59,356 nt of DNA, from the IMG/VR virus record IMGVR_UViG_3300010234_000013, positions 1 through 59,356 of that record; one strand, given 5' to 3'. The notes under the pieces were generated by a model that saw nothing but the letters and a program-made list of their open reading frames with translations, ran no database searches and had not been told where the DNA came from. How positions within the stretch are numbered: position 1 is the first letter of the stretch; each line of letters begins with the position of its first letter. The stretch comes from a virus. Taxonomy: Duplodnaviria; Caudoviricetes. Shown in pieces: positions 4,288-15,908 of the stretch. Both the position numbers and the translations under genes were made by a program.

Positions 4288-4626
4288 ATGTTACAAGGAT
4301 TTTCAATTGCAGCAATAGCAGTCTTATTGTTTATTGGGTACAAAATTTGGGATGACTCAAGAATTAAAACAAAAGAACTTAGTCCAGGAGCCGAAAAAGC
4401 AAAGGCGTTGTTGACACAAATTTCGGTAATACTTGCATCAATAGTGTCGCTGAATCTATTTGGTCAAATACCATTTGTTGATAAATTGGTTTCTAGTTTG
4501 GGGTTTGTGGTTGATAGTTTTGACAATGCCTATGATCTTGGTGTTCAAATAATTGCTGTAGTTATTTCTTTTTACAAAATATGGAAACCAGCAGTTGAGG
4601 TCGAATTAAAGGCTAAAGGTCTTTAG
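4288..4626 (+). CDS. Putative holin
   Basis: 2-3 hydrophobic segments, directly upstream of endolysin. Confidence 0.55.
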   Translation: MLQGFSIAAIAVLLFIGYKIWDDSRIKTKELSPGAEKAKALLTQISVILASIVSLNLFGQIPFVDKLVSSLGFVVDSFDNAYDLGVQIIAVVISFYKIWKPAVEVELKAKGL

Positions 4627-4642
4627 TATACGGTTATAACGT

Positions 4643-5170
4643 ATGGCGTCATTACAGCAGCAAATATACACTGTAGCCAAGTCTTTTAATGGGTTACGGG
4701 AAATAAAAGGACATCTAGATAATGGCTTTTTGGTAAGTATAATTGTTTGGGCCTTACCTTTTGTAAGAGGACAAAATGATATAGATGGAAGATATGCTTA
4801 TTGTGGCATATTTTTAGGCCATATCTGCAAATCTATAGGCAAAGAACATCTATTACCAAATAAGTTTTATCGTGCGAGGAATTGGCTTAATGTGGGTATT
4901 AATATAAACCTGGAAGAAGCGCAGAAAGGCGACTTTGTAATCTTTTACAGGGGCCACAAAGATGGAAGGATGGGCCATGTATCATTATATGAATCACATG
5001 ACAAGGAATTCATAAGATGTTTTGGTGCAAATCAAAGCAATGCAATAAGAAGTAGCAATTATAGAAAGGATAGATTGTTAGGTGTAAGGCGAATGGTAGA
5101 TGTAAAGTCTTATTTCCTGCCTGATAGCAAATCCAGTGTATTGAGTAAGCTATTAAAGAAGTATATATGA
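4643..5170 (+). CDS. Endolysin, NlpC/P60-CHAP superfamily (TIGR02594-like)
   Basis: Catalytic Cys in YCGIF, ARNWL, GDFVIF, GHV, GANQSN. Confidence 0.8.
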   Translation: MASLQQQIYTVAKSFNGLREIKGHLDNGFLVSIIVWALPFVRGQNDIDGRYAYCGIFLGHICKSIGKEHLLPNKFYRARNWLNVGININLEEAQKGDFVIFYRGHKDGRMGHVSLYESHDKEFIRCFGANQSNAIRSSNYRKDRLLGVRRMVDVKSYFLPDSKSSVLSKLLKKYI

Positions 5171-6201
5171 GTGATGAATTTCCAATAAAAAGTCCACCAT
5201 TAAGGGTAGTGCAGAAAGATGTGATATTACCTAAATCTGCAAACCCAATATATGATGAAGGAGCAAGGCTATTGGGTATTGAAAAATATCACAAGCTCTA
5301 TGAGTTGATGGGCGAAGGAAAGACTTATGTGATAATGGATGACGGACATAATAAGCATGGTAACTTAAGTGATCCGATAGAAATAATAGCCTATGGATTT
5401 GGGAATACAGATACACCCTCCGGACATGGTAATTCCACCAATGGAATAATAGGAATGATAGGAAATCCAATCTTGGGGCCTATATCAAAAGGAAAAACAG
5501 TTCACAAAAAAGTACTTGGCGTAAATGGTGGTTCGCCAAATCAGATCAACAAAGCGTTTATAGATTTTCTTAATAGCGAACATGTATATGCAAATGCTTC
5601 TTTTGGTGCAAGTGGTAGTTTTTCGCACAAGCCCACTGAAGAAACTTTAAAGAAAATAAAGGCTGCAAACAAGATTGTATGCGTGGCATCGGGAAATGAA
5701 TATGATGACAAGGTTGGGTGGCCTGCAAATAGTCCATATGTATTTGCAATAGGATCTGTAGACTTTGACGAAAATCATGCATTGTATTCTAATTCTGGTG
5801 ATGATTTGGATTTTGTTATTTATGGCAGTAACATATTGGCTCCAAATAAATCGGGAGGTCATGATAAAATAACAGGCACATCCGCTGCTTGTCCTTATGC
5901 ATTGGCATGTATAATGGCATACCACGAATACTTTGAAAGGCTTTTCAAATACACTCCTGGATGGCAGGAAACCTATGACATATTAAAATGCTATGCAAAG
6001 GACTTAAGGGATCTTGGATATGACTTCAAAACAGGACATGGACTAATTACTTTAAGAGGTATAGACGATAAATTTAGGAAGTATATTTTGGATTATGGGC
6101 GTAAGGATTTAGCCAAAATGTTGGATGACAAGTCTTTAGAAGATGTAGTAGAAGAAATAAACAAGAAACCACCAAATACTAAAAAAAAAAGAATTGGCTG
6201 A
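5167..6201 (+). CDS. Subtilisin-family (S8) serine protease without signal peptide
   Basis: Triad motifs IMDDG, HGNST, GTSAACP; oxyanion ASGN; GHGLI. Confidence 0.9.
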   Translation: MSDEFPIKSPPLRVVQKDVILPKSANPIYDEGARLLGIEKYHKLYELMGEGKTYVIMDDGHNKHGNLSDPIEIIAYGFGNTDTPSGHGNSTNGIIGMIGNPILGPISKGKTVHKKVLGVNGGSPNQINKAFIDFLNSEHVYANASFGASGSFSHKPTEETLKKIKAANKIVCVASGNEYDDKVGWPANSPYVFAIGSVDFDENHALYSNSGDDLDFVIYGSNILAPNKSGGHDKITGTSAACPYALACIMAYHEYFERLFKYTPGWQETYDILKCYAKDLRDLGYDFKTGHGLITLRGIDDKFRKYILDYGRKDLAKMLDDKSLEDVVEEINKKPPNTKKKRIG

Positions 6202-8139: not shown

Positions 8140-8568
8140 ATGGATAGAAACGAAAGGCAACGGAAAAGGAGGCGTGGAAACAATAATTTTCATACAAAGA
8201 AATATGAAAAGACGAAAAATGGGTTTTTGATGAGGGCGTATAGAAACATGTTAAGTCGTGTAAGAGGTGTTACTAAAAATAAAAATCATTTGTATTTGGG
8301 ATTGGAAATATTGCACAAGAAAGATTTTTATGCTTTTTCTCTTGCAGACAACAACTTTCATAAACTGTTTTATGTGTGGGAAAATTCAGGCCACGAAAGA
8401 CGATTAACACCAAGCATAGATAGAATAGATTCTAAGCTTGGGTACACGTTGGATAATATGCAATGGATAGCGTTTAGTGATAATTGTAGGAAAACAAGCA
8501 GAAACCTTGTGTATAGAAAAGTTAGATTTACGGAAAGCCTGGATTATATCGGCAAATCCACCTGCTGA
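8140..8568 (+). CDS. HNH-like endonuclease
   Basis: [20 protein letters not shown]...N motif. Confidence 0.7.
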
Positions 8569-8696
8569 AGTAAATCATTAGAAACGTGAGTGTAAATCTC
8601 TGTAGTCTTACTGGACTTGTGACCAAGTAGTTTTTGAACTATTCTCAAATTGGTTCCGTTTTCAATTAAAGCTGTAGCGTTAGAATGCCTTAACAT
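8544..8696 (-). pseudogene. C-terminal remnant (50 aa) of XerD/IntI-like tyrosine recombinase
   Basis: Manual translation [39 protein letters not shown]; RHS, LLGH and catalytic Y present, N-terminus replaced by attC-like hairpin. Confidence 0.85.
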
Positions 8697-8819
8697 CGGC
8701 TATAAAATCATTTCCTTGTGTATAGTTTTTATCCATTTTCTTTATATGTTTTTTGAACGTGTATAGTTATTAGCGTTTTCTTTACATATCGGCAACGCTT
8801 CGTAGCCAAAACGTTAGCG
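8688..8819 (+). mobile_element. attC-like recombination site 1
   Basis: TAAC(8691)-atc-GGCTAT ... GTAGCC-aaaac-GTTA(8813) imperfect hairpin. Confidence 0.7.
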
Positions 8820-9068
8820 GTTATTGCACTCGGTTAGATAATCTTGTATCTGTTTATCACAACTGAGCAAGTACATTAACTCTATTTCATTATCAGTTAA
8901 CCCACTTTCATTTTTACCGCCATCTTTTTCAATAAGCATCGAGTACAGCCTTCTTTTAGCAAGCAACAAACCGCTAACATTATCTAAACCCAATAAGGGT
9001 GTAGTGCTATTTGATGTGGTTGTTTCTTGATTTTCATCGTACATACTTAGTTTTTTAAAGTTTTTCAT
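8814..9068 (-). CDS. Cassette-borne hypothetical protein
   Basis: Starts inside attC-like site 2, stop codon lies in core of site 1. Confidence 0.65.
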   Translation of the reverse strand: MKNFKKLSMYDENQETTTSNSTTPLLGLDNVSGLLLAKRRLYSMLIEKDGGKNESGLTDNEIELMYLLSCDKQIQDYLTECNNR

Positions 9069-9101
9069 AATCCCTTACTGTGTTTAGATTTAGCGTTAAA
9101 G
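8969..9101 (+). mobile_element. attC-like recombination site 2
   Basis: AACCGCTAAC-att-ATCTAAAC..AATAAGGG ... CCCTTACT..GTTTAGAT-ttagc-GTTA(9095); AACCGCTAAC is the exact reverse complement of GTTAGCGGTT at 8813. Confidence 0.8.
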
Positions 9102-9155
9102 CGCAATGCACCCAATAAGGTATAATCTCCTTCAGATCAATATCCAATGTACCTT

Positions 9156-9348
9156 TTAGGGTATAACTGGCAATTCCTCAACTTCCTGGATAAAATTATT
9201 TATCGTTTGCTTTAATTTTTGATGCTGTTCTCTTTCCATAGTTTTATCTAAAAGGGTTTTGTTTTTTTGTATTCTGCCGTATATGCAACATGCTTCGCAA
9301 TTCACCTTTGGCCCTTTCCCATGCCATTAATTTTAATATTCCTTCCAT
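9156..9348 (-). pseudogene. Possibly frameshifted small gene (MEGILKLMAWERAKGELRSMLH.../...MEREQHQKLKQTINNFIQEVEE)
   Basis: Start overlaps upstream stop; two short protein-like frames join near 9280. Confidence 0.3.
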
Positions 9349-9695
9349 TATGATTTTTCTGATTTTACGCTCCTGGTTTCAAAATAATTCTTGTACTCCG
9401 GATGCATATATTCAAAATAACGTGCATAAGAAGCTGTGTAATCGTTGTTAATCTTGTATCCGTCCGTACTTAAGGTTTTGATGTAATGGCTTGCTCTCAA
9501 GTACTCTATTATCATTTTGCTTGATAGCCTTTTTGCTCCTTTTTCAATAAGCTGCAAAGCCAATTTTTCAAATTCTTCATATACGTGTTTATTGTCAAGA
9601 TGAAATTTCCACATCCTTTCTTTAGCGGATAATTTTATGTTGTTTCTTTTTGACAAAATGTTGTTTATGAAAACAAGAACGATGCTGTTATACAC
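9348..9695 (-). CDS. Conserved-looking phage hypothetical protein
   Basis: FHxxNxHVY...SSKMIIEYLR...KINNDY pattern. Confidence 0.6.
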   Translation of the reverse strand: MYNSIVLVFINNILSKRNNIKLSAKERMWKFHLDNKHVYEEFEKLALQLIEKGAKRLSSKMIIEYLRASHYIKTLSTDGYKINNDYTASYARYFEYMHPEYKNYFETRSVKSEKS

Positions 9696-9723
9696 CGTTC
9701 CTGCTCACTTGAAAAATGGCTGA

Positions 9724-10074
9724 TTAAAAGGGCATATCATCATCGTATCCAGCAGCTTCTGGAATTGCAGACGGTGCATTCGTGTGTGCTGCTTCTGATA
9801 GTTTTTCAATTTTCCAAAACTGAAGGTTGTTAAATACCTTTCCTTCGTAATTATTTCCGGTAATGTCAAAGAATACATTTACCGTTTCGCCAACTTGAAC
9901 ATTCGTTACTAAGTCGCTTTTATCTCCAAATGCCGAAAACTTTACAGGTTGTGGATATTGCCCTATTGTTTCGATCAACAAATGGGCTATCGTGTAGTCC
10001 TTTCCAGAATTCTTTGATTTCTTTGTAACCGGATCAACTTTATTGGTTACTATCCCTTGAATTTGTAAGTTCAT
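9724..10074 (-). CDS. Single-stranded DNA-binding protein (DUF3127-like)
   Basis: OB-fold-like pattern, QYPQ, acidic tail DDDMPF. Confidence 0.85.
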   Translation of the reverse strand: MNLQIQGIVTNKVDPVTKKSKNSGKDYTIAHLLIETIGQYPQPVKFSAFGDKSDLVTNVQVGETVNVFFDITGNNYEGKVFNNLQFWKIEKLSEAAHTNAPSAIPEAAGYDDDMPF

Positions 10075-10291
10075 ATTTTTGATTTAATTTATGCTCAAAT
10101 TGTTTAATAAAATTTTTAATTCTCATTTCGTGCAAAGGTCTGTATACACTATCTATACCTTTATCGTTTCCAAGAAGGCTATCCATAATAAATAATGCAT
10201 CTAATATTCTTTGTTGTGCCTCAACCAAAAGTTCAATGGCTTCCCATTTATCCTTCGGTGATGGTGCTGTTTTTTTTACATCTAAATTCAT
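10040..10291 (-). CDS. Hypothetical protein
   Basis: Operon-coupled ORF. Confidence 0.55.
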   Translation of the reverse strand: MNLDVKKTAPSPKDKWEAIELLVEAQQRILDALFIMDSLLGNDKGIDSVYRPLHEMRIKNFIKQFEHKLNQKYELTNSRDSNQ

Positions 10292-10294
10292 AAT

Positions 10295-10660
10295 TTATTG
10301 CATCGATTTAATCCACCTGGATATTGAATTAGCAACAGCAGATCCAGAATCAAACATTATCCTAAATCCCTTCAACTTTCCTTCTAATTCTGCTTCCTTG
10401 ATTCTCAAGTCTTTTGTCTTTACTATCGAAGAACTTTCTCTATCTGCAACCGTTCCTTCTGCTGTAAGTTTTTCTTTTGCCTGTGTTACCTTTCTATCTA
10501 CATAAGCAGTTTTGAATTTACCTTCCAGGATAGCTATTTGCTTTCCCAATTTTGCCAACTCAATAGAAAGTAATTGATCTTGTCGCAATAGATCATTAAG
10601 GTCATATTCTTCAATTGTGAAGTTTTCGTACCAGTGTATTATTTCGCCTATTTTGTTCAT
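10295..10660 (-). CDS. Coiled-coil protein in recombination module
   Basis: Heptad-rich helical sequence downstream of recT. Confidence 0.6.
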   Translation of the reverse strand: MNKIGEIIHWYENFTIEEYDLNDLLRQDQLLSIELAKLGKQIAILEGKFKTAYVDRKVTQAKEKLTAEGTVADRESSSIVKTKDLRIKEAELEGKLKGFRIMFDSGSAVANSISRWIKSMQ

Positions 10661-10668
10661 GCCGATTA

Positions 10669-11499
10669 TTAATTATTAAATAATCCTTCTACCCTTTCAA
10701 CTTTCGTTTCGTCAATTCCGTCATTATCTATGTAGGTGATTTCATTTTCATTTATCACCGATTGATCCACTCTTATCGCTTCACTTAGATTTTGAATGCT
10801 TTGACTTTTTACGCTTAATGGCGCATACTTTGAAAGCAATAGTTTCAACACCGTTTTCTTGCACATTGCATCTTTCATGTCCTTCCAAAGCCCAAATCCT
10901 TTTGCATAAGTTTTGCTGTACTTTTTTCCATGTTCTTCTAATTGTTCAGAAGTCATATACAGTGTTTTTTGGAACCCATTTGTCAATCGGAAAAAGGCCA
11001 CATAACCAATTGTGTTTACATTGTTGCGTTCTTCTCCTGCTATCCAATCAAATGTGTATTCACCTGTTAATCTGTCCACGTTAATCAATTCCCCTTCTCT
11101 AACATCGTCCGTATTAATCACCGCAAATTGTCCGGTTCGTTGTGCCAACTGGATATAACCCTTTGCACCTATTTGAAAATTTGCTTCTTTCTTCCATTGA
11201 TCTTGTGCGCCATTTTTGCCTCTTACTTTTACATTGTATGGTAGGACATAGGCAAATCCAAGATTCTGGTCTAATGGTAAATCAAGTGCTGTTGCTTTCA
11301 ATGCCGAATACATAACCGATGAAGGCGTGCATTCCTGAAGTCCTGTATTTGAAGAAACTATACTTACAATATTTGCTACGAATGATTCCTTCTGGTGGCC
11401 CACAACCGATTCAATGTATTCCTGCGTCTTATCATTCATGATGTAGGAATTGAACTGCTTAAGCCCTGTTGCTTTGTTTTGCATTACCGTTGTTTCCAT
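10669..11499 (-). CDS. recT: RecT-family ssDNA annealing protein
   Basis: LPLDQNLGFAYVLPY, FQIGAKGYIQLAQRTG, MCKKTVLK. Confidence 0.93.
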   Translation of the reverse strand: METTVMQNKATGLKQFNSYIMNDKTQEYIESVVGHQKESFVANIVSIVSSNTGLQECTPSSVMYSALKATALDLPLDQNLGFAYVLPYNVKVRGKNGAQDQWKKEANFQIGAKGYIQLAQRTGQFAVINTDDVREGELINVDRLTGEYTFDWIAGEERNNVNTIGYVAFFRLTNGFQKTLYMTSEQLEEHGKKYSKTYAKGFGLWKDMKDAMCKKTVLKLLLSKYAPLSVKSQSIQNLSEAIRVDQSVINENEITYIDNDGIDETKVERVEGLFNN

Positions 11500-11502
11500 T
11501 TC

Positions 11503-12462
11503 TTAACTCTTTAATTTTATTTGAAGAGAAGGCTTTACGGTTGTTTGCTTTGTAAGGTTTTCATATTCGGCTCCAACAAATTCTTTTACCTTTTTGGTGT
11601 CAACACTGGATCTTACATAACTTTCCTTTGCTGTTATGGTAAAGTATGGAGTGCTGATTGTTTTTATCCCTCGTTGCATCATATTATCAAGCAATCCAGT
11701 TCTTATTTTGCTTTTGATTAATGCTGCTTGTTTTTCCATCAGCAAAGCATCTTCCAAAGCCTTCATTGCTGCAACTTCTCTAGTTTCAGATTCGGACATG
11801 TAGATAGTTTCCTTTTCTTCGTAAGGCTCAATTGTTTCCCATTCAGTGTCCAGTTTTTGAAGTCCGTGATAAATTGCCCTTTGTGTGTCTGCAAAATTGG
11901 ATACTGGATGAAAGGTTAATTTTGATTCATCAAATTCATACAATTCTGGTGTTGTATAAATATCCTTTGTGTCGTAATGTGCAAACTGAAAAGACTGTTC
12001 TTTTTCAAGCTCGTCCATAATCAAACAATGCCATGCAATTTGACCTTGATATTTTTTTGTGGTTGTTGCAACATCATCTTTGGTTGCTTTTAGTTCAACA
12101 AAGAAATTATCAGATTCAAAATCAATGTGACAGTAAGCGGTGAAGTTTACGAATGTATTTTCTGGAAGTGAATTGGTAGGATTAGATTTTATTCCTTTCC
12201 ATTCTTTATCGCCTTTCAGATAATCAAAAACATCGGATTCAACTTTGTTTCCAAGATCAAAGTATTTTGAAAATATTTCTTTACGCTCAATTTCCCCTTT
12301 GATTTCTGAAATTCTTCGTCTTAGTGAATTGTTGATTATTCCGGTTGCTGCGTAGTGTAAAATATCACTAGCATCGGAAGATCCGAATCCTTTCTTTTTG
12401 TTTTTTAAGAATGATTTGTCGATAGATTTTTCAGGCAGAATCGCCATTTTCCCATTTTCCAT
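11503..12462 (-). CDS. YqaJ/lambda-exonuclease-like recombination nuclease
   Basis: GFGSSDAS, GNKVE, HIDF, VELKAT, YQGQ; adjacent to recT. Confidence 0.8.
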   Translation of the reverse strand: MENGKMAILPEKSIDKSFLKNKKKGFGSSDASDILHYAATGIINNSLRRRISEIKGEIERKEIFSKYFDLGNKVESDVFDYLKGDKEWKGIKSNPTNSLPENTFVNFTAYCHIDFESDNFFVELKATKDDVATTTKKYQGQIAWHCLIMDELEKEQSFQFAHYDTKDIYTTPELYEFDESKLTFHPVSNFADTQRAIYHGLQKLDTEWETIEPYEEKETIYMSESETREVAAMKALEDALLMEKQAALIKSKIRTGLLDNMMQRGIKTISTPYFTITAKESYVRSSVDTKKVKEFVGAEYENLTKQTTVKPSLQIKLKS

Positions 12463-12653
12463 TTTAACAAGTTTTAAGTTTGAAAAAATAGAAACGGAAA
12501 GCATCAATAAACTAACCTGGAAAGATTAGTTTGAAATAATCGTACAGCAAAAATAACAATAATAATGCAATAATTCAAGTCAATAATAATTTCTATAGTG
12601 TTTTGACTTGCTTGTTAGCATCTGATTATCAGATAATTATGAACGTAAAAAAA

Positions 12654-13799
12654 TTATAAATTTGATATTTTCAGTATAGCTTTATCGCTTATTGATCCAT
12701 ACTTTGCCGTTGTTGCTGTGGAGCTGTGCGCCATCATTTCAGCAATGATATGTAATGGATAACCTCGTTCTAACATGATGGATTTAAACGTGTGTCTTGC
12801 ACCATGAACGGTCATATATTTATCGATTTCTGCTTCTGTCAATAGCTTTCTGAAATTGGAATTGAGATCATGGTTGTGAACTTTTTTGAACGGGCCATGA
12901 TTATTAAATAAATCCAAAGCTCTGTTGTCAAATAAGTGAATTGGAACCCTTGCAAATTTTCCTTTTCGCTTTTTAGTTTTCCCTGCAAGGTATACCAGAA
13001 GTCCATTCTTTTTGAAATTGGATTTTGTGATAATAGAAATGTCGCCTACCCTCATTCCGGTGTAGAATAGGAATAGCATATAATATTTCACTTTGAGCAA
13101 CACATTTGAAGATGGAGTATGTTTATAGAATATTTCAAGTTCTTCTTCAGTCAAGACTTCTACAACCTTTGCTGTCCTGCTGATCTTAAACCCGAAGAAA
13201 ATATCTTCATTGATGTATCCCTTCAATCTTGCTGCTCTTACAAATTTTCTGAATACCACAAATAGAGAATGGATATAGTTGGCAGACAACACTGTTCCTT
13301 TGTGCGACTTTTGTTTAAACAACCAGGATTTAAAATCAAGAAGAAAATTGTGGTTCAGTTGGCTACAATAAATTGGATCTTGGAATGCTTTTAGTTTTTT
13401 GAATACATCTAACCTTTTTTTATAAGTTGAATCTGCCAATCGTTCACCTTCCTCATAATTTAATTTATAGCAAAATTGCAGAAAATCGACATCAGAAAAT
13501 TGGTCATACTGCAAATGCCTTATAAGATCCTTTGGTACAAACCTTTCTTTTTTCTTCCATTTGCTTCTATAATATCTTCTAGCTTCCAAGATCCATGTCT
13601 GGATGTCTTCGTTGTACTGGTAAGCTTCCAAATGCTTCATTACCCATTCTTTTTTCTCGTTCCATTGAGTAGGTTTCACAAGTATCTTTGTGTCGAAATA
13701 AAATGGTTGTCCTTGATAAATAAATCGGATATGTATTTTTCCTAATCCATCGGCTCTAAGTCGTTTAGATCGGTTAAAAACGGCTTTGATGTTGAGCAT
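12654..13799 (-). CDS. int: Tyrosine integrase with N-terminal arm-binding domain
   Basis: YTGMR, K, HGARHTF, MAHSS, catalytic Y; likely start MLNIK at 13799. Confidence 0.93.
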   Translation of the reverse strand: MLNIKAVFNRSKRLRADGLGKIHIRFIYQGQPFYFDTKILVKPTQWNEKKEWVMKHLEAYQYNEDIQTWILEARRYYRSKWKKKERFVPKDLIRHLQYDQFSDVDFLQFCYKLNYEEGERLADSTYKKRLDVFKKLKAFQDPIYCSQLNHNFLLDFKSWLFKQKSHKGTVLSANYIHSLFVVFRKFVRAARLKGYINEDIFFGFKISRTAKVVEVLTEEELEIFYKHTPSSNVLLKVKYYMLFLFYTGMRVGDISIITKSNFKKNGLLVYLAGKTKKRKGKFARVPIHLFDNRALDLFNNHGPFKKVHNHDLNSNFRKLLTEAEIDKYMTVHGARHTFKSIMLERGYPLHIIAEMMAHSSTATTAKYGSISDKAILKISNL

Positions 13800-13800
13800 A

Positions 13801-14001
13801 TTTGTAAGCGATTTGTAAGTATAGTTACGCAATATTGCGCTTTAATACCTAAAATCAATACTCTAAACCCATATATTTGTTGAAGTGTTACGCAGTATTG
13901 CGTATGAGGCCGTATCCAGTTGAACTACGCGGCCATACTATAATATGTTAATAATCAATGCTTTATGAAATTAACCACAATTTTTTGTAAGTGATTTGTA
14001 A
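13801..14001. other. Putative attP: arm-type repeats flanking a tRNA-5'-end-like core
   Basis: TTTGTAAG(C/T)GATTTGTAA at 13801 and 13984; GTTACGCA(A/G)TATTGCG at 13824 and 13887; minus-strand GGCCGCGTAGTTCAACTGGATA at 13934-13913. Confidence 0.75.
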
Positions 14002-14208
14002 TTAATAGTATTCGTCAAAAGCAGAGTTATCTACATCTAGATTGAACTTCATCAAGTTGACTAAAGTATTCCTTCCAACCTTCTTCTTCTCAATGAAACC
14101 CGAAGTTATTAAATTTTCAATCTTTCTCCTACTTATACCAGTAACACTACATAAGTACTCTATGCCGACCCATTTGTTAGGGATTATGTGTTGTGTTGTG
14201 GTGTTCAT
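14002..14208 (-). CDS. xis: Excisionase-like winged HTH protein
   Basis: 68 aa, WVGIEYL..TGISRRKIENLI..G..KKVGR; adjacent to attP/int. Confidence 0.7.
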   Translation of the reverse strand: MNTTTQHIIPNKWVGIEYLCSVTGISRRKIENLITSGFIEKKKVGRNTLVNLMKFNLDVDNSAFDEYY

Positions 14209-14216
14209 TTTGACGC

Positions 14217-14597
14217 CTATACAAAAGTAGATAAGAAGTCGATTCCCTCTTCCAAATTATCATAGGTGGCATCCGACACTTTTTTCAAAAACTGCAAATA
14301 TCTGTCTTTGTCGTGTCCTGGCTCTAAAACCAAAATAACAGTTTTGTCCTTCCCTTTTGCGTACCCTGCTTCAACAGCTAATCCAAACCCACTAGGATTT
14401 GATTTTTCCATATACACAAAACAAATGTCACATTGTTTTATATAGTTTAAATCCCAAGTGCCATATTCTTGCAATTCAAATTCCCTCTTTACCTCTTTCA
14501 GTTTTGGATCATAAAACTCAACATTATCCAATGACCTAATTCTTTCTCTCCAATTAGAACGCATACCTCCGGCTAGATAAACTTTTTGCTTTTTCAT
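14217..14597 (-). CDS. Nucleoside 2-deoxyribosyltransferase/N-glycosidase-like protein
   Basis: VYLAGG, FYDP, DLNYIKQCD, SGFGLAVEAGYA. Confidence 0.8.
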   Translation of the reverse strand: MKKQKVYLAGGMRSNWRERIRSLDNVEFYDPKLKEVKREFELQEYGTWDLNYIKQCDICFVYMEKSNPSGFGLAVEAGYAKGKDKTVILVLEPGHDKDRYLQFLKKVSDATYDNLEEGIDFLSTFV

Positions 14598-14862
14598 ATT
14601 TTTTAAATAGTTGTTTATTAAATATTTGAGAAGTTATTTCTCTTCTCTTTTCTTGGCTACCGTACCCGCTTTCAGGGTCGGCTAATGATCCATCTTCTAG
14701 GACTCTTTGCCACGTCCACCAGTTACTTAATCTACCGTTTACCTCATACTGTCCATTATTTACATATACGTCACATGGGTAGTTTGGATTATCTTCAAAT
14801 CTCCATCCTGTGTGGTGTACTACTGACCCACTTGCAGGGGCGTGTATTGTTTCGTTTTTCAT
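14554..14862 (-). CDS. Hypothetical protein following attC-like site 3, probably chimeric C-terminus
   Basis: Starts about 30 nt from the hairpin core; composition changes after GYGS and tail overlaps next gene. Confidence 0.55.
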   Translation of the reverse strand: MKNETIHAPASGSVVHHTGWRFEDNPNYPCDVYVNNGQYEVNGRLSNWWTWQRVLEDGSLADPESGYGSQEKRREITSQIFNKQLFKKYEKAKSLSSRRYAF

Positions 14863-14886
14863 AGTTTTATTTATTTAAATATAAAA

Positions 14887-14947
14887 GCATATAACATCGT
14901 ATGATCAAATCATGCTATCGCACGCTTGATATACAGGCGTTAGCGTT
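14887..14947 (+). mobile_element. attC-like recombination site 3 (short)
   Basis: TAAC(14892)-atc-GTAT-g-ATCAA..TGC-tatc-GCA..TTGAT-ATAC-aggc-GTTA(14939). Confidence 0.8.
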
Positions 14948-15212
14948 CATAGCCTTTTAAGAACTGTTCTGCATCTTTAAGTCCGAATGAGTACAGTTTA
15001 TTTTTAGCTTCTTCCTTTAGTACTTTAATAGCTGTTAACTTTTCGCCATTATTGTAGGCATCTATACATATTTTCAAGATATCTTTGTCAACTTCAACCA
15101 AAGGCAACGAAACGCTAACACTATATAAATCCAATAGCTTATTAGCTGTTTCACCTATACAGTTTTCACCTGTTTGCATCTTTAGTAATAAATCATTTAT
15201 TTGTTTTTTCAT
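14940..15212 (-). CDS. Cassette-borne hypothetical protein
   Basis: Starts inside attC-like site 4, stop in core of site 3; KLTAIKVLKE..FGLKDA resembles an L7/L12 C-terminal-like motif. Confidence 0.65.
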   Translation of the reverse strand: MKKQINDLLLKMQTGENCIGETANKLLDLYSVSVSLPLVEVDKDILKICIDAYNNGEKLTAIKVLKEEAKNKLYSFGLKDAEQFLKGYER

Positions 15213-15244
15213 ATCGCTACTAGTTTTATATTTTAACGTTAGTA
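15111..15244 (+). mobile_element. attC-like recombination site 4
   Basis: AACGCTAAC-act-ATATAAA..ATAGC ... GCTAC..TTTATAT-tttaac-GTTA(15238); AACGCTAAC is the reverse complement of GTTAGCGTT at 14939. Confidence 0.8.
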
Positions 15245-15398
15245 GTCATACACGTTTTGCCCACGAACCATCCATCCGCACATATGCTCGCAACATAGTT
15301 CTGTTTGGTTGTCTATCATTATTTACTGTTCAGCCCAATTTCCACAAACCACAAAAAGCCCATAGCTACATATCCAAGCACTGTAATTATCTTTAGAA

Positions 15399-15908
15399 TC
15401 ATGATTGGAATTGATTCATCCGACTTTTCCCAATTGTCTTAATCAGCGTATCCCCTCTTCTCACATACATGTAATCTCCTTCGATATATCTTTTTGGTGG
15501 ATCCAGTTCTATTTTGGACATGTTGAACCTGTTGATTCCAGATTTCAAGTATTCGTAAATTCTTTGTCTTAATTCTATAAGTCCGTAATTGTATAATTCC
15601 ATACCGGACAATGCACCTTGCGTTATTCCAATTTTATTCGCTAAATCTGTTTGGCTTACCTTTCTATCTTCTCTTAACTTCCTTAATTTATCACCGTATA
15701 ATTTTTGTGGAATCTTTGCTTCAATTCCTGGTAAGGATGCCAACCATTCAATAATTTTTTTTGAAATCGCAATGTTTCCGTAATAATCCCTTTCCAGAAG
15801 AGTAACAGATTCATATGACAAATCAAACTCTTTTGCAATTGCTCTTTTCGTCAATCCCTTTTGTATTCTTAGCTGTTTTATTTTCATCCTATTAGTATTT
15901 AATAACAA
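15399..15908 (-). CDS. Tandem XRE-family HTH protein
   Basis: IKQLRIQKGLTKRAIA and LRKLREDRKVSQTDLANKIGITQGALS. Confidence 0.85.
   Translation of the reverse strand: MLLNTNRMKIKQLRIQKGLTKRAIAKEFDLSYESVTLLERDYYGNIAISKKIIEWLASLPGIEAKIPQKLYGDKLRKLREDRKVSQTDLANKIGITQGALSGMELYNYGLIELRQRIYEYLKSGINRFNMSKIELDPPKRYIEGDYMYVRRGDTLIKTIGKSRMNQFQS

Follow-up and report, generated by a model that had tools for sequence, protein, structure and literature searches.

Minus-strand hairpin elements that carry the start codon and first codons of small genes were identified in a viral contig (IMG/VR record IMGVR_UViG_3300010234_000013; linear, 59,356 nucleotides (nt), estimated to be 57% complete), the whole of which was analysed and is called the window below. 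Each element runs from TAAC to GTTA, and the open reading frame (ORF) that begins in its loop crosses the GTT in frame as valine. Comparison with related sequences showed leaders and bodies changing partners at this GTT, a pattern that is well supported, and the best explanation is that the window holds remnants of an integron-like cassette system which is denser in related phages of aquatic Bacteroidota. Three such elements, each containing an ATG, were found in the window (H1 to H3); they are given here with the body cassettes and a further short element (aa, amino acids).

15116..15241, minus strand: H3, the leader-1 element, consisting of TAAC (15241-15238), a 6-nt spacer, arm ATATAAA, ATG at 15212 and 31 leader codons, arm TTTATAT, a 3-nt spacer and GTTA (15119-15116), of which GTT 15119-15117 is Val32.
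14939..15119, minus strand: body cassette of the 90-aa ORF, lacking a start codon of its own, with flanks GTTAGCGTT ... AACGCTAAC and the TAA stop within the 3' TAAC.
14892..14942, minus strand: short inter-cassette element of the generic type (TAAC...GTTA), separating the 90-aa ORF from the 102-aa ORF.
8975..9098, minus strand: H2, the leader-2 element, consisting of TAAC, a 5-nt spacer, an 18-nt arm (2 mismatches), ATG at 9068 and 30 leader codons, the second arm, a 3-nt spacer and GTTA (8978-8975), of which GTT 8978-8976 is Val31.
8813..8978, minus strand: body cassette of the 84-aa ORF, with flanks GTTAGCGGTT ... AACCGCTAAC and the stop within TAAC.
8691..8816, minus strand: H1, a generic-type inter-cassette element, TAAC-GTTTT-GGCTAC ... 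ATAGCC-GAT-GTTA, with an ATG at 8736 in the loop.

All three minus-strand ORFs start inside the hairpin loop and cross the core with GTT read as Val, exactly as an earlier note on this DNA had claimed: the 90-aa ORF of H3 (15212-14940), the 84-aa ORF of H2 (9068-8814) and the 18-codon ORF of H1 (8736-8680), which stops three codons after the GTT and is a leader without a body. The same note's observation that both complete ORFs end on the TAA of the next core, inside CGCTAAC (8814 and 14940), also held. The inverted repeat of H2 comprises 18 nt (8982-8999/9072-9089, 89% complementary) and that of H3 16 nt (15123-15138/15216-15231, 81% complementary); the H1 stem has only 5 base pairs (bp; GGCTA/TAGCC), and TAACGTTTTGGCTACG in H1 stands two mismatches away from the consensus of its relatives. 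GTTAGCG occurs eight times in the window against 2.39 ± 1.42 expected, a count reached in none of 100 shuffles, and four of the eight copies are the paired cores of the two complete ORFs. Folded as single-stranded DNA, H2 adopts the long hairpin as its minimum-energy structure (z = -3.1, with 2 of 200 shuffles folding equally well). A strict scan for TAAC, spacer, stem (≥ 7 bp), second arm, spacer and GTTA returned three hits in two elements, compared with 0.99 ± 1.28 in 100 randomisations (maximum 7). These window-only statistics are modest and suggestive only, and the main support comes from related sequences.

The earlier note had proposed, as a check, that one and the same leader should be found fused to different C-termini exactly at the GTT valine. 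For leader 1 (ORF 14940-15212), 225 of 226 candidate proteins matched residues 1-40 of the 90-aa protein; 120 matches listed out of the 225 entered the body analysis, in which bodies were clustered by BLASTP, and all 120 carried the leader. Among these listed matches V32 was retained in 114, residue 33 was S in 101, R in 15, T in three and K in one, and similarity stopped there. The bodies behind it fell into 46 unrelated clusters, 35 of them singletons, with sizes of 20-110 aa; some were zinc-ribbon-like, some membrane-like and some helical. When 1.84 billion representative sequences were searched exhaustively with HMMER, 118 hits were obtained (counted as representatives at 50% identity), most of them leader-only and ~ 20 body-only. 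Leader 2 (ORF 8814-9068) behaved in the same manner: its 19 homologues comprised three near-identical proteins, 14 with the same leader and other bodies, and two with the window's body and other leaders.

The expected fusions were thus seen for both leaders, and the partner swap was also observed in reverse, with a single body behind several leaders at the valine. The body of the 84-aa ORF followed leaders of 48 aa in P0124 and 11 aa in P0125, in each case joined as D/VSG (the slash marks the junction), and the body of the 90-aa ORF stood behind at least five other leaders ending in ..DV/, ..GV/ or ..NV/ (P0141, P0142, P0144, P0145 and P0153), with junctions ..PDV/AQSLALVEVD, ..ADV/RLSLVEVD, ..GGV/GQSLVLVEVD, ..ADV/VGSLPLIEID and ..SNV/RQSLALVEVD. 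This body was also found alone with hardly any N-terminal extension (P0154, P0216), and one body family occurred behind both leader 1 and leader 2 (P0068/P0133, 43% identity, E = 5e-11). When nine other leader-bearing proteins were scanned for family matches, the sole match was that of the leader-2 protein P0126 to Lar restriction alleviation proteins (E = 4e-5, below the cut-off).

Several peculiarities of the leader-bearing sequences were recorded alongside. P0068 is a three-part fusion of a 77-aa upstream ORF, leader 1 and a body, read without interruption across the element. P0150 (179 aa) has leader 1 twice over, as diverged tandem copies. At 4395-5321 of the related contig L021, three consecutive elements are of the leader type, and one leader encodes residues 1-15 of a signal peptide of lipoprotein-like type, the lipobox being encoded by the body cassette (MKNLIKLPQLFILCL/VICFLSSC). 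Contigs of 0.5-2.5 kb are the source of many leader-bearing proteins, the L009 contig begins just upstream of leader 1 (153 nt from the contig start), and in L035/L036 a leader-1 ORF is divided between the two ends of one 76.7-kb contig. Assemblies may break at the leader element because co-occurring genomes differ behind it.

Across about 20 related loci, similarity in the leader-1 element extended from (Y)TAAC, ~ 33 nt upstream of the ATG, through GTTA, and sequences outside these limits were unrelated. The stem joins a region 15-22 nt upstream of the ATG to codons 28-31, and its arms co-vary in three forms (ATATAAA/TTTATAT, GTATAAA/TTTATAC and GCAAATAAAT/ATTTATTTGC). Paired cells made up 78% of the stem alignment, compared with at most 49% when the partner was slid by one to three columns. 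Pair 30-142 was AU in 13 sequences, GC in six and GU in two, and pair 31-141 was AU in 14 and UA in eight; double changes at two stem pairs were present in six and eight sequences. The covariation score was matched by none of 500 shuffles, in a set of sequences that form few related groups and hence record few independent events, at least two. Judged from this alignment, the hairpin is under selection. The spacers are asymmetric, with 5-6 nt after TAAC and 1-3 nt before GTTA (commonest pairs among 245 hits: (6,3) 11 times, (5,1) nine times and (5,2) eight times), and the orientation follows the genes. The recurrent layout of TAAC, 5-6 nt, a stem of at least 7 bp, the second arm, 1-3 nt and GTTA is that of an attC-type bipartite imperfect hairpin with arm asymmetry. 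The statement that the genes are oriented against the attC top strand is not supported: the cores are symmetric, both strands look alike in the window, and the asymmetric spacers of relatives run with the genes.

In 24 leader-1 DNA sequences, the numbers of variable sites at codon positions 1, 2 and 3 were 20, 7 and 28 of 32 codons, and many codons varied synonymously only. Variation concentrated in third positions indicates that the leader is translated and that its amino-acid sequence is under purifying selection, which argues that it is more than a start signal. The element had previously been described as a translation start module; it does supply the ATG and the leader, but it goes beyond such a module in that the leader peptide itself is selected. 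An AlphaFold2 model placed helices at residues 2-14 and 19-31, followed by a poorly defined linker from V32 (mean pLDDT (predicted local distance difference test) 67; the input alignment was informative for the leader only, and confidence was moderate), so that the leader is predicted to be a two-helix module with a linker. It probably gives its payloads a common property, such as a shared partner or destination. A search of a protein atlas with the leader gave no usable match. An L7/L12-like identity of the 90-aa protein was considered and rejected, there being no Pfam support at E up to 0.1. Forty-six of 139 leader-bearing proteins end in N-x-(R/C/G/S), which is due to the conserved DNA terminus ..AAT GAN CGC TAA C, read in other frames elsewhere, and not to a protein motif.

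Dense arrays of small genes were found in the related contigs L008, L013, L021 and L022, where almost every intergenic region has a common layout: a few gene-specific bases and TAAC, then a shared consensus (GGTTTGGCTATG...), and finally GTTA with gene-specific bases, at a distance of 18-44 nt from the ATG that follows. Across loci, a consensus of 16-25 nt (TAACGGTTTGGCTATG..) is common to the generic elements; a reading of this consensus as a host promoter was dropped, since by eye it did not fit the Bacteroidota -33/-7 motifs. Inverted repeats flanking genes were lost among AT-rich matches when the search had no anchor. With GTT as the anchor, 26 of 54 genes showed an inverted repeat of at least 8 nt between their own two flanks, compared with 73 of 2860 mismatched pairings; for at least 9 nt the figures were 20/54 and 29/2860. 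Some 20 distinct specific sequences each pair with their own complement. The window conforms to this: its strongest inverted repeats, which had gone unmentioned in the earlier note, bracket the two ORF bodies (8813-8978 and 14939-15119), and the own-flank pairing of the two cassettes covers 9 and 10 nt. At the 14892-14942 element, the following gene starts with GTTATATGC, for which a 3' partner repeat was not found; this element resembles the TAACG..TATAT / GTTATATGC elements of L021, and its fold is weak (z = -0.9). Inversion of a body between its flanking repeats as a source of alternative proteins was considered and rejected, the reverse strands (inspected by eye in the GTT frame) stopping after 13 and 17 codons.

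Among the 28 repeat-bearing genes, the GTT was an in-frame Val in 14, lay in another frame in five and stood upstream of the ATG in nine. The TAG in GTTAG rules out one frame, so that it is to Leu-Ala that Val-Ser is preferred. The arrays contain at least eight more families of leaders, all with a similar ..L.L../V(S) junction. The termini GTTAGCGGTTCGTTGCC (5') and ..CAATGACCGCTAAC (3') recurred in L049 and L050, where they are read in another frame and the linker differs by 1 nt in compensation, from which it follows that cassette termini are features of the DNA. In L012, L013 and L021 a leader element keeps its downstream body, and the upstream gene and downstream element differ, with breaks at TAAC; this requires a second exchange point or homologous exchange.

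The window also contains the end of a recombinase gene abutting H1.

8544..8696, minus strand: remnant of a Xer-like tyrosine recombinase, the C-terminal 50 codons (Pfam PF00589, E = 8e-14).

Homology of the remnant to recombinases is broken at the GTTA of H1, and a TAG lies two codons upstream of the remnant's ATG; truncation exactly at a GTTA is what an event at a secondary site would leave. The H1 leader enters the remnant for three codons in a frame other than that of the recombinase. H1, with these three out-of-frame codons, is the one case behind the proposal that such elements may switch on non-coding sequence. NCBIfam models for XerD, XerC and XerA/integron matched only the last ~ 46 positions of the remnant, which is 44% identical to the C-terminus of a 278-aa recombinase of L009, whose gene follows the leader gene at a distance of 0.8 kb. 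This XerA/XerD-like protein scored 184 bits in two stretches against TIGR02249 (cut-off 265), well short of the integron-integrase subfamily model, and 212.5 bits against NF040815 (cut-off 220), narrowly missing the XerA/integron-integrase model. Other recombinases occur in further relatives: a prophage integrase in G003, and in L013 a serine recombinase nearby. The L013 gene (5705-6406, 233 aa) lies two genes downstream of the leader gene; the XisF, IS607 and invertase models of NCBIfam matched it weakly.

The best available mechanism, in our judgement, is an integron-like, site-specific exchange that uses the hairpins and takes place at the TAAC/GTTA cores; it is unproven and has about an even chance of being correct. 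An element consists of TAAC, a 5-6-nt spacer, a 7-18-bp stem, a loop, the second arm, a 1-3-nt spacer and GTTA, and a cassette begins with GTT(A) and 5-6 cassette-specific bases and ends with their complement and (T)AAC. Complementary ends of this kind are expected if cassettes are circular, at least transiently, and their ends rejoin into one hairpin. In one class of elements the loop carries a start codon and a leader of 11-48 codons that stays in frame through GTT (Val, usually Val-Ser). The leader thereby enters a cassette without a start of its own, and exchange at or near the cores would put any body behind any leader. A Xer-like recombinase, of which the window retains only the remnant, is the candidate enzyme; if the exchange is enzymatic, the sequences suggest that the enzyme is often provided in trans or lost. 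Gene-specific repeats, covarying stems, frame-independent termini and a recombinase cut at GTTA are all covered by hairpin exchange and by no other reading considered.

A number of observations weigh against this mechanism. Only two good cassettes are present in the window; the stems are short and AT-rich with loops of 70-190 nt; the minimum-energy structure of H3 (z = -2.7) differs from the long hairpin; and the fold of H1 is not significant (z = -0.4). Mismatches in the stems (six G-T versus six A-C) do not allow a strand to be assigned. An integron integrase was not found in the window, which contains only a Bacteroidota-type integrase and the 50-aa Xer-like remnant, and the complete relative G002 (direct terminal repeats, 100% complete), which carries a leader gene, gave no PF00589 match. 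A canonical integron, with exchange at G/TT only and attC tied to the upstream ORF, does not predict the pattern in L012, L013 and L021, and homologous recombination inside a conserved element would likewise leave breakpoints at its two ends. The consensus of the attC core R'' is RYYYAAC. That of R' is stated to be GTTRRRY in the account of phage attC sites cited here (PMC9892861). AAC and GTT(A) are near-invariant at the element ends, and other positions (CGCTAAC/GTTAGCG) break both. The site of Polaribacter phage P12002L on which the integron integrase IntI1 acts (see below) is not confirmed to be one of the TAAC...GTTA elements, a link that we infer.

The earlier claim that recombination at the core grafts leaders onto new bodies thus stands in its central prediction about leaders and bodies and lacks the mechanism, given the missing integron integrase and the fact that homologous exchange leaves the same breakpoints. 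The chief competing account holds that conserved regulatory linkers serve as patches for homologous recombination, as in the promoter-early stem-loop (PeSL) elements of T4-type phages, modules being swapped by phage RecT and exonuclease and the hairpins not being substrates. We consider this a possible but doubtful explanation. A RecT-like annealing protein is encoded beside ORF 11503-12507, which is read as its exonuclease; the generic consensus of 16-25 nt and the leader element of ~ 125 nt offer enough homology; breakpoints lie on either side of the element, and the L012/L013/L021 pattern implies either exchange on both sides or a contribution from homologous recombination; G002 lacks a tyrosine recombinase match; and PeSL shuffling with mini-circles provides a precedent, as far as that description goes (PMC2839356). 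It leaves unexplained why gene-specific repeats of 8-10 nt abut invariant GTT/AAC (26/54 vs 73/2860), why the stems covary and why cassette termini are independent of frame. Nor was an excess of sigma-70-like promoters (29 vs 26.8 ± 6.4, in a scan whose model does not cover Bacteroidota promoters) or of intrinsic terminators seen in 8400-15500, and no minus-strand terminator-like site coincided with the elements.

Conserved leaders beside hypervariable C-termini occur in other systems, and the proteins could be ordinary small two-domain proteins with variable C-termini (polymorphic toxin or RiPP-like, that is, resembling ribosomally synthesised and post-translationally modified peptides), the DNA hairpins and repeats being incidental. 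Selection on the leader as a protein and its predicted helical hairpin and linker agree with such a view, which is nevertheless improbable: the bodies represent unrelated folds and sizes (46 clusters) and not one diverged domain, the same body is found with unrelated leaders, the junction is a DNA motif whose repeats also bound genes with their own start (9 of 28), and no modifying enzyme was present among the annotated window neighbours.

Similarly improbable is the proposal that the hairpins work in mRNA, through translational control, cistron processing or stability, with the leader a regulatory upstream frame that is fused incidentally. The start codon does lie within the loop, the stem links a stretch 15-22 nt upstream of the ATG to codons 28-31, and short ORFs in integron attI/attC sites are described as modulating translation (PMC8876359, within the scope of that text). 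However, AT-rich stems of 7-10 bp with loops of ~ 95 nt would be weak RNA structures, no Rfam family was matched, conservation of leader amino acids is not required of a purely regulatory ORF, and both the gene-flanking 5'/3' repeats and the combinatorial pattern would go unexplained. Chance, given that weak inverted repeats abound in AT-rich phage DNA, is very improbable as a general explanation, being contradicted by every comparative result (shared leaders, covariation, own-flank repeats and termini) and refuted for H2 and H3, even though the strict hairpin scan of the window stayed within about 1.6 standard deviations of random and H1, with a fold that is not significant, is weak alone.

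The elements lie in a minus-strand early/lysogeny block that spans 8.5-20.6 kb of the window. The 6.5-kb stretch between the hairpins (9100-14860) is an ordinary recombination/lysogeny module outside the feature. The genes annotated in and beside the block are as follows.

8140-8568, plus strand: HNH/endonuclease VII-like gene (PHROG matches, E = 5e-11).
10669-11499: gene for the RecT-like annealing protein, adjoining ORF 11503-12507.
12654-13832: integrase of Bacteroidota type with Arm-DNA-bind_5, SAM_5 and Phage_integrase domains (PF17293 + PF13102 + PF00589).
14002-14208: excisionase-like gene (family matches).
14217-14597: nucleoside deoxyribosyltransferase-like gene (family matches).

ORF 11503-12507 is the putative exonuclease partner of the RecT-like protein. 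Where the minus-strand block ends, the HNH/endonuclease VII-like gene and the recombinase remnant point towards each other. Two copies of GTTACGCA(A/G)TATTGCG, each containing a near-palindrome, stand just upstream of the integrase start (13824-13839 and 13887-13902, plus strand; two matches vs 0.03 expected) and are probably integrase or attP binding sites. The first copy is overlapped by the 12-mer ATTGCGCTTTAA (13834-13845, plus strand), whose one further exact match (9096-9107, minus strand) overlaps the TAAC at the 5' end of H2; the phage integrase may have some connection with the cassette cores. A 22-nt direct repeat (9104-9125/9145-9166, 77% identity), overlapping a 13-nt inverted repeat, sits within the 280-nt gap upstream of H2.

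No close genome was found in the GenBank phage collection, where blastn returned four records at 1-4% coverage; matches to named phages were short and limited to Flavobacterium and Cellulophaga phages. A Bacteroidota host fits these matches and the integrase type, and is not proven by them. The 90-aa protein had no tblastn match in the same collection, the 84-aa protein no relative among the viral contigs searched, and neither protein had a match in Pfam or PHROGs. ARAGORN detected no tRNA and Rfam no RNA family in the window.

Small orphan genes crowd the early regions of phages, and their origin and spread are poorly understood. The grammar described here can be recognised in sequence by the GTT...AAC ends of cassettes, by TAAC...GTTA hairpins and by leader elements, and would account for the assembly and re-sorting of many small proteins. 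Phage attC-like sites, recently reported as few and isolated, are thereby extended to dense arrays, and the in-frame fusion of a leader is added as a new function of such sites. Start-less 'ORFs' that gene callers start wrongly or overlook could be annotated by this route, which may also help to find payload libraries that are likely to be rich in anti-defence functions, one body being Lar-like. Polaribacter phage P12002L and flavobacterial phages offer culturable systems for studying the recombination. A more far-reaching and tentative proposal, less likely than not to be correct, is that aquatic Bacteroidota phages possess an integron-like system assembling both proteins and gene orders, with hairpins that encode selected two-helix leaders and linkers, start-less payloads joined in frame at a GTT codon, a destination or partner shared through the leader and an anti-defence arsenal. 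If true, viruses would have their own counterpart of exon shuffling, carried out by site-specific recombination, in which the leader would take all payloads to a common destination or partner (e.g. virion delivery or docking on a host target) and the payloads would form a rapidly renewed arsenal against host defences.

The elements share with integron attC sites, and with clusters of attC sites lacking integron integrases (CALIN), imperfect hairpins that separate mostly co-oriented small genes, stops that often fall within the AAC core, outer cores ...AAC/GTT..., lengths of 45-190 nt and the lack of an integrase nearby. The attC-like architecture put forward in the earlier note is borne out, including cassette-specific inverted repeats as expected of integron-type cassettes. 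Integron cassettes are recognised as circularisable by the complementarity of their 5' bases after GTT to their own inverse core, and the same signature is present here. Unlike in integrons, the cassette-specific pairing is longer (8-10 nt, reaching about 17-21 nt with further pairs), the elements have sequence and not just structure in common, exchange seems to be two-sided, and many elements encode a translated, selected leader that is fused in frame to the next cassette. A complete integron, with intI, attI and a cassette promoter, was not seen in the window; H1 and H2 lie 160 nt apart and H3 6 kb away, and calling them a CALIN requires accepting the elements as attC.

In the dif modules of Acinetobacter plasmids, single genes between inversely oriented sites are moved by Xer tyrosine recombinases. 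A Xer-like recombinase is likewise the sole candidate enzyme here, but no 28-bp dif-like site (two 11-nt arms and a 6-nt spacer) was recognised and the repeats are gene-specific. Polymorphic toxins have swappable C-terminal domains behind a conserved junction motif, and T4 internal proteins have capsid-targeting leaders. As in both, a single N-terminal part or junction is combined with many unrelated payloads; the hairpins and cassette-specific repeats set the present system apart, and no link to toxins or capsids was shown. The payloads plausibly serve in conflict with the host, one body being Lar-like (restriction alleviation). RiPPs do not offer a match: the bodies have 20-110 aa, and a scan of 10 neighbouring ORFs of the window revealed no modifying enzyme.

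Literature searches on phage or attC elements encoding fused leaders and on intergenic repeats of flavobacterial phages turned up no account of the arrangement. Qi et al. (2023) reported integrase-less attC clusters in 17 phages, including the Flavobacteriia phage P12002L of Polaribacter, in which, by the account given there, the cluster encloses two methyltransferase genes and one site was recombined by IntI1 at G/TT (PMC9892861). We found the methyltransferase and Mom-like genes of P12002L to be flanked by the same element architecture as in the window, for example TAAC-GGACGAG-TATATACGT...ACGTATATA-CATT-GTTA, and by gene-specific repeats (GTTACCTA/TAGGTAAC and GTTACCCA/TGGGTAAC); the first 15 bases of this example are identical to the 5' arm that the leader-1 element has in L007 and in L008.

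PeSLs, as described, combine a promoter and a terminator and are exchanged through internal homology; shuffling and mini-circles are documented, and the authors themselves drew the comparison with integrons (PMC2839356). Like the elements in the window, they are conserved composite intergenic elements flanking small ORFan genes in plastic early regions; the present elements differ from that description in having gene-specific inverted repeats, fixed GTT/AAC cores and protein leaders.

A precedent for a leader that starts within a recombination site and reads across the core into a cassette is provided by ORF-11 and ORF-18 of attI1, short ORFs with a start codon inside the site that cross the crossover point (PMC8876359). 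According to the passages on ORF-11 in that source, this ORF helps cassettes without initiation signals of their own, ends at the TAG of GTTAG and acts via translational coupling, its peptide sequence being of little importance (PMC8876359). In contrast to ORF-11 as portrayed there, the frame used here is GTT AGC, which gives a true fusion protein, the leaders of 11-48 aa are conserved as proteins, and they are supplied by many sites and not by one attI.

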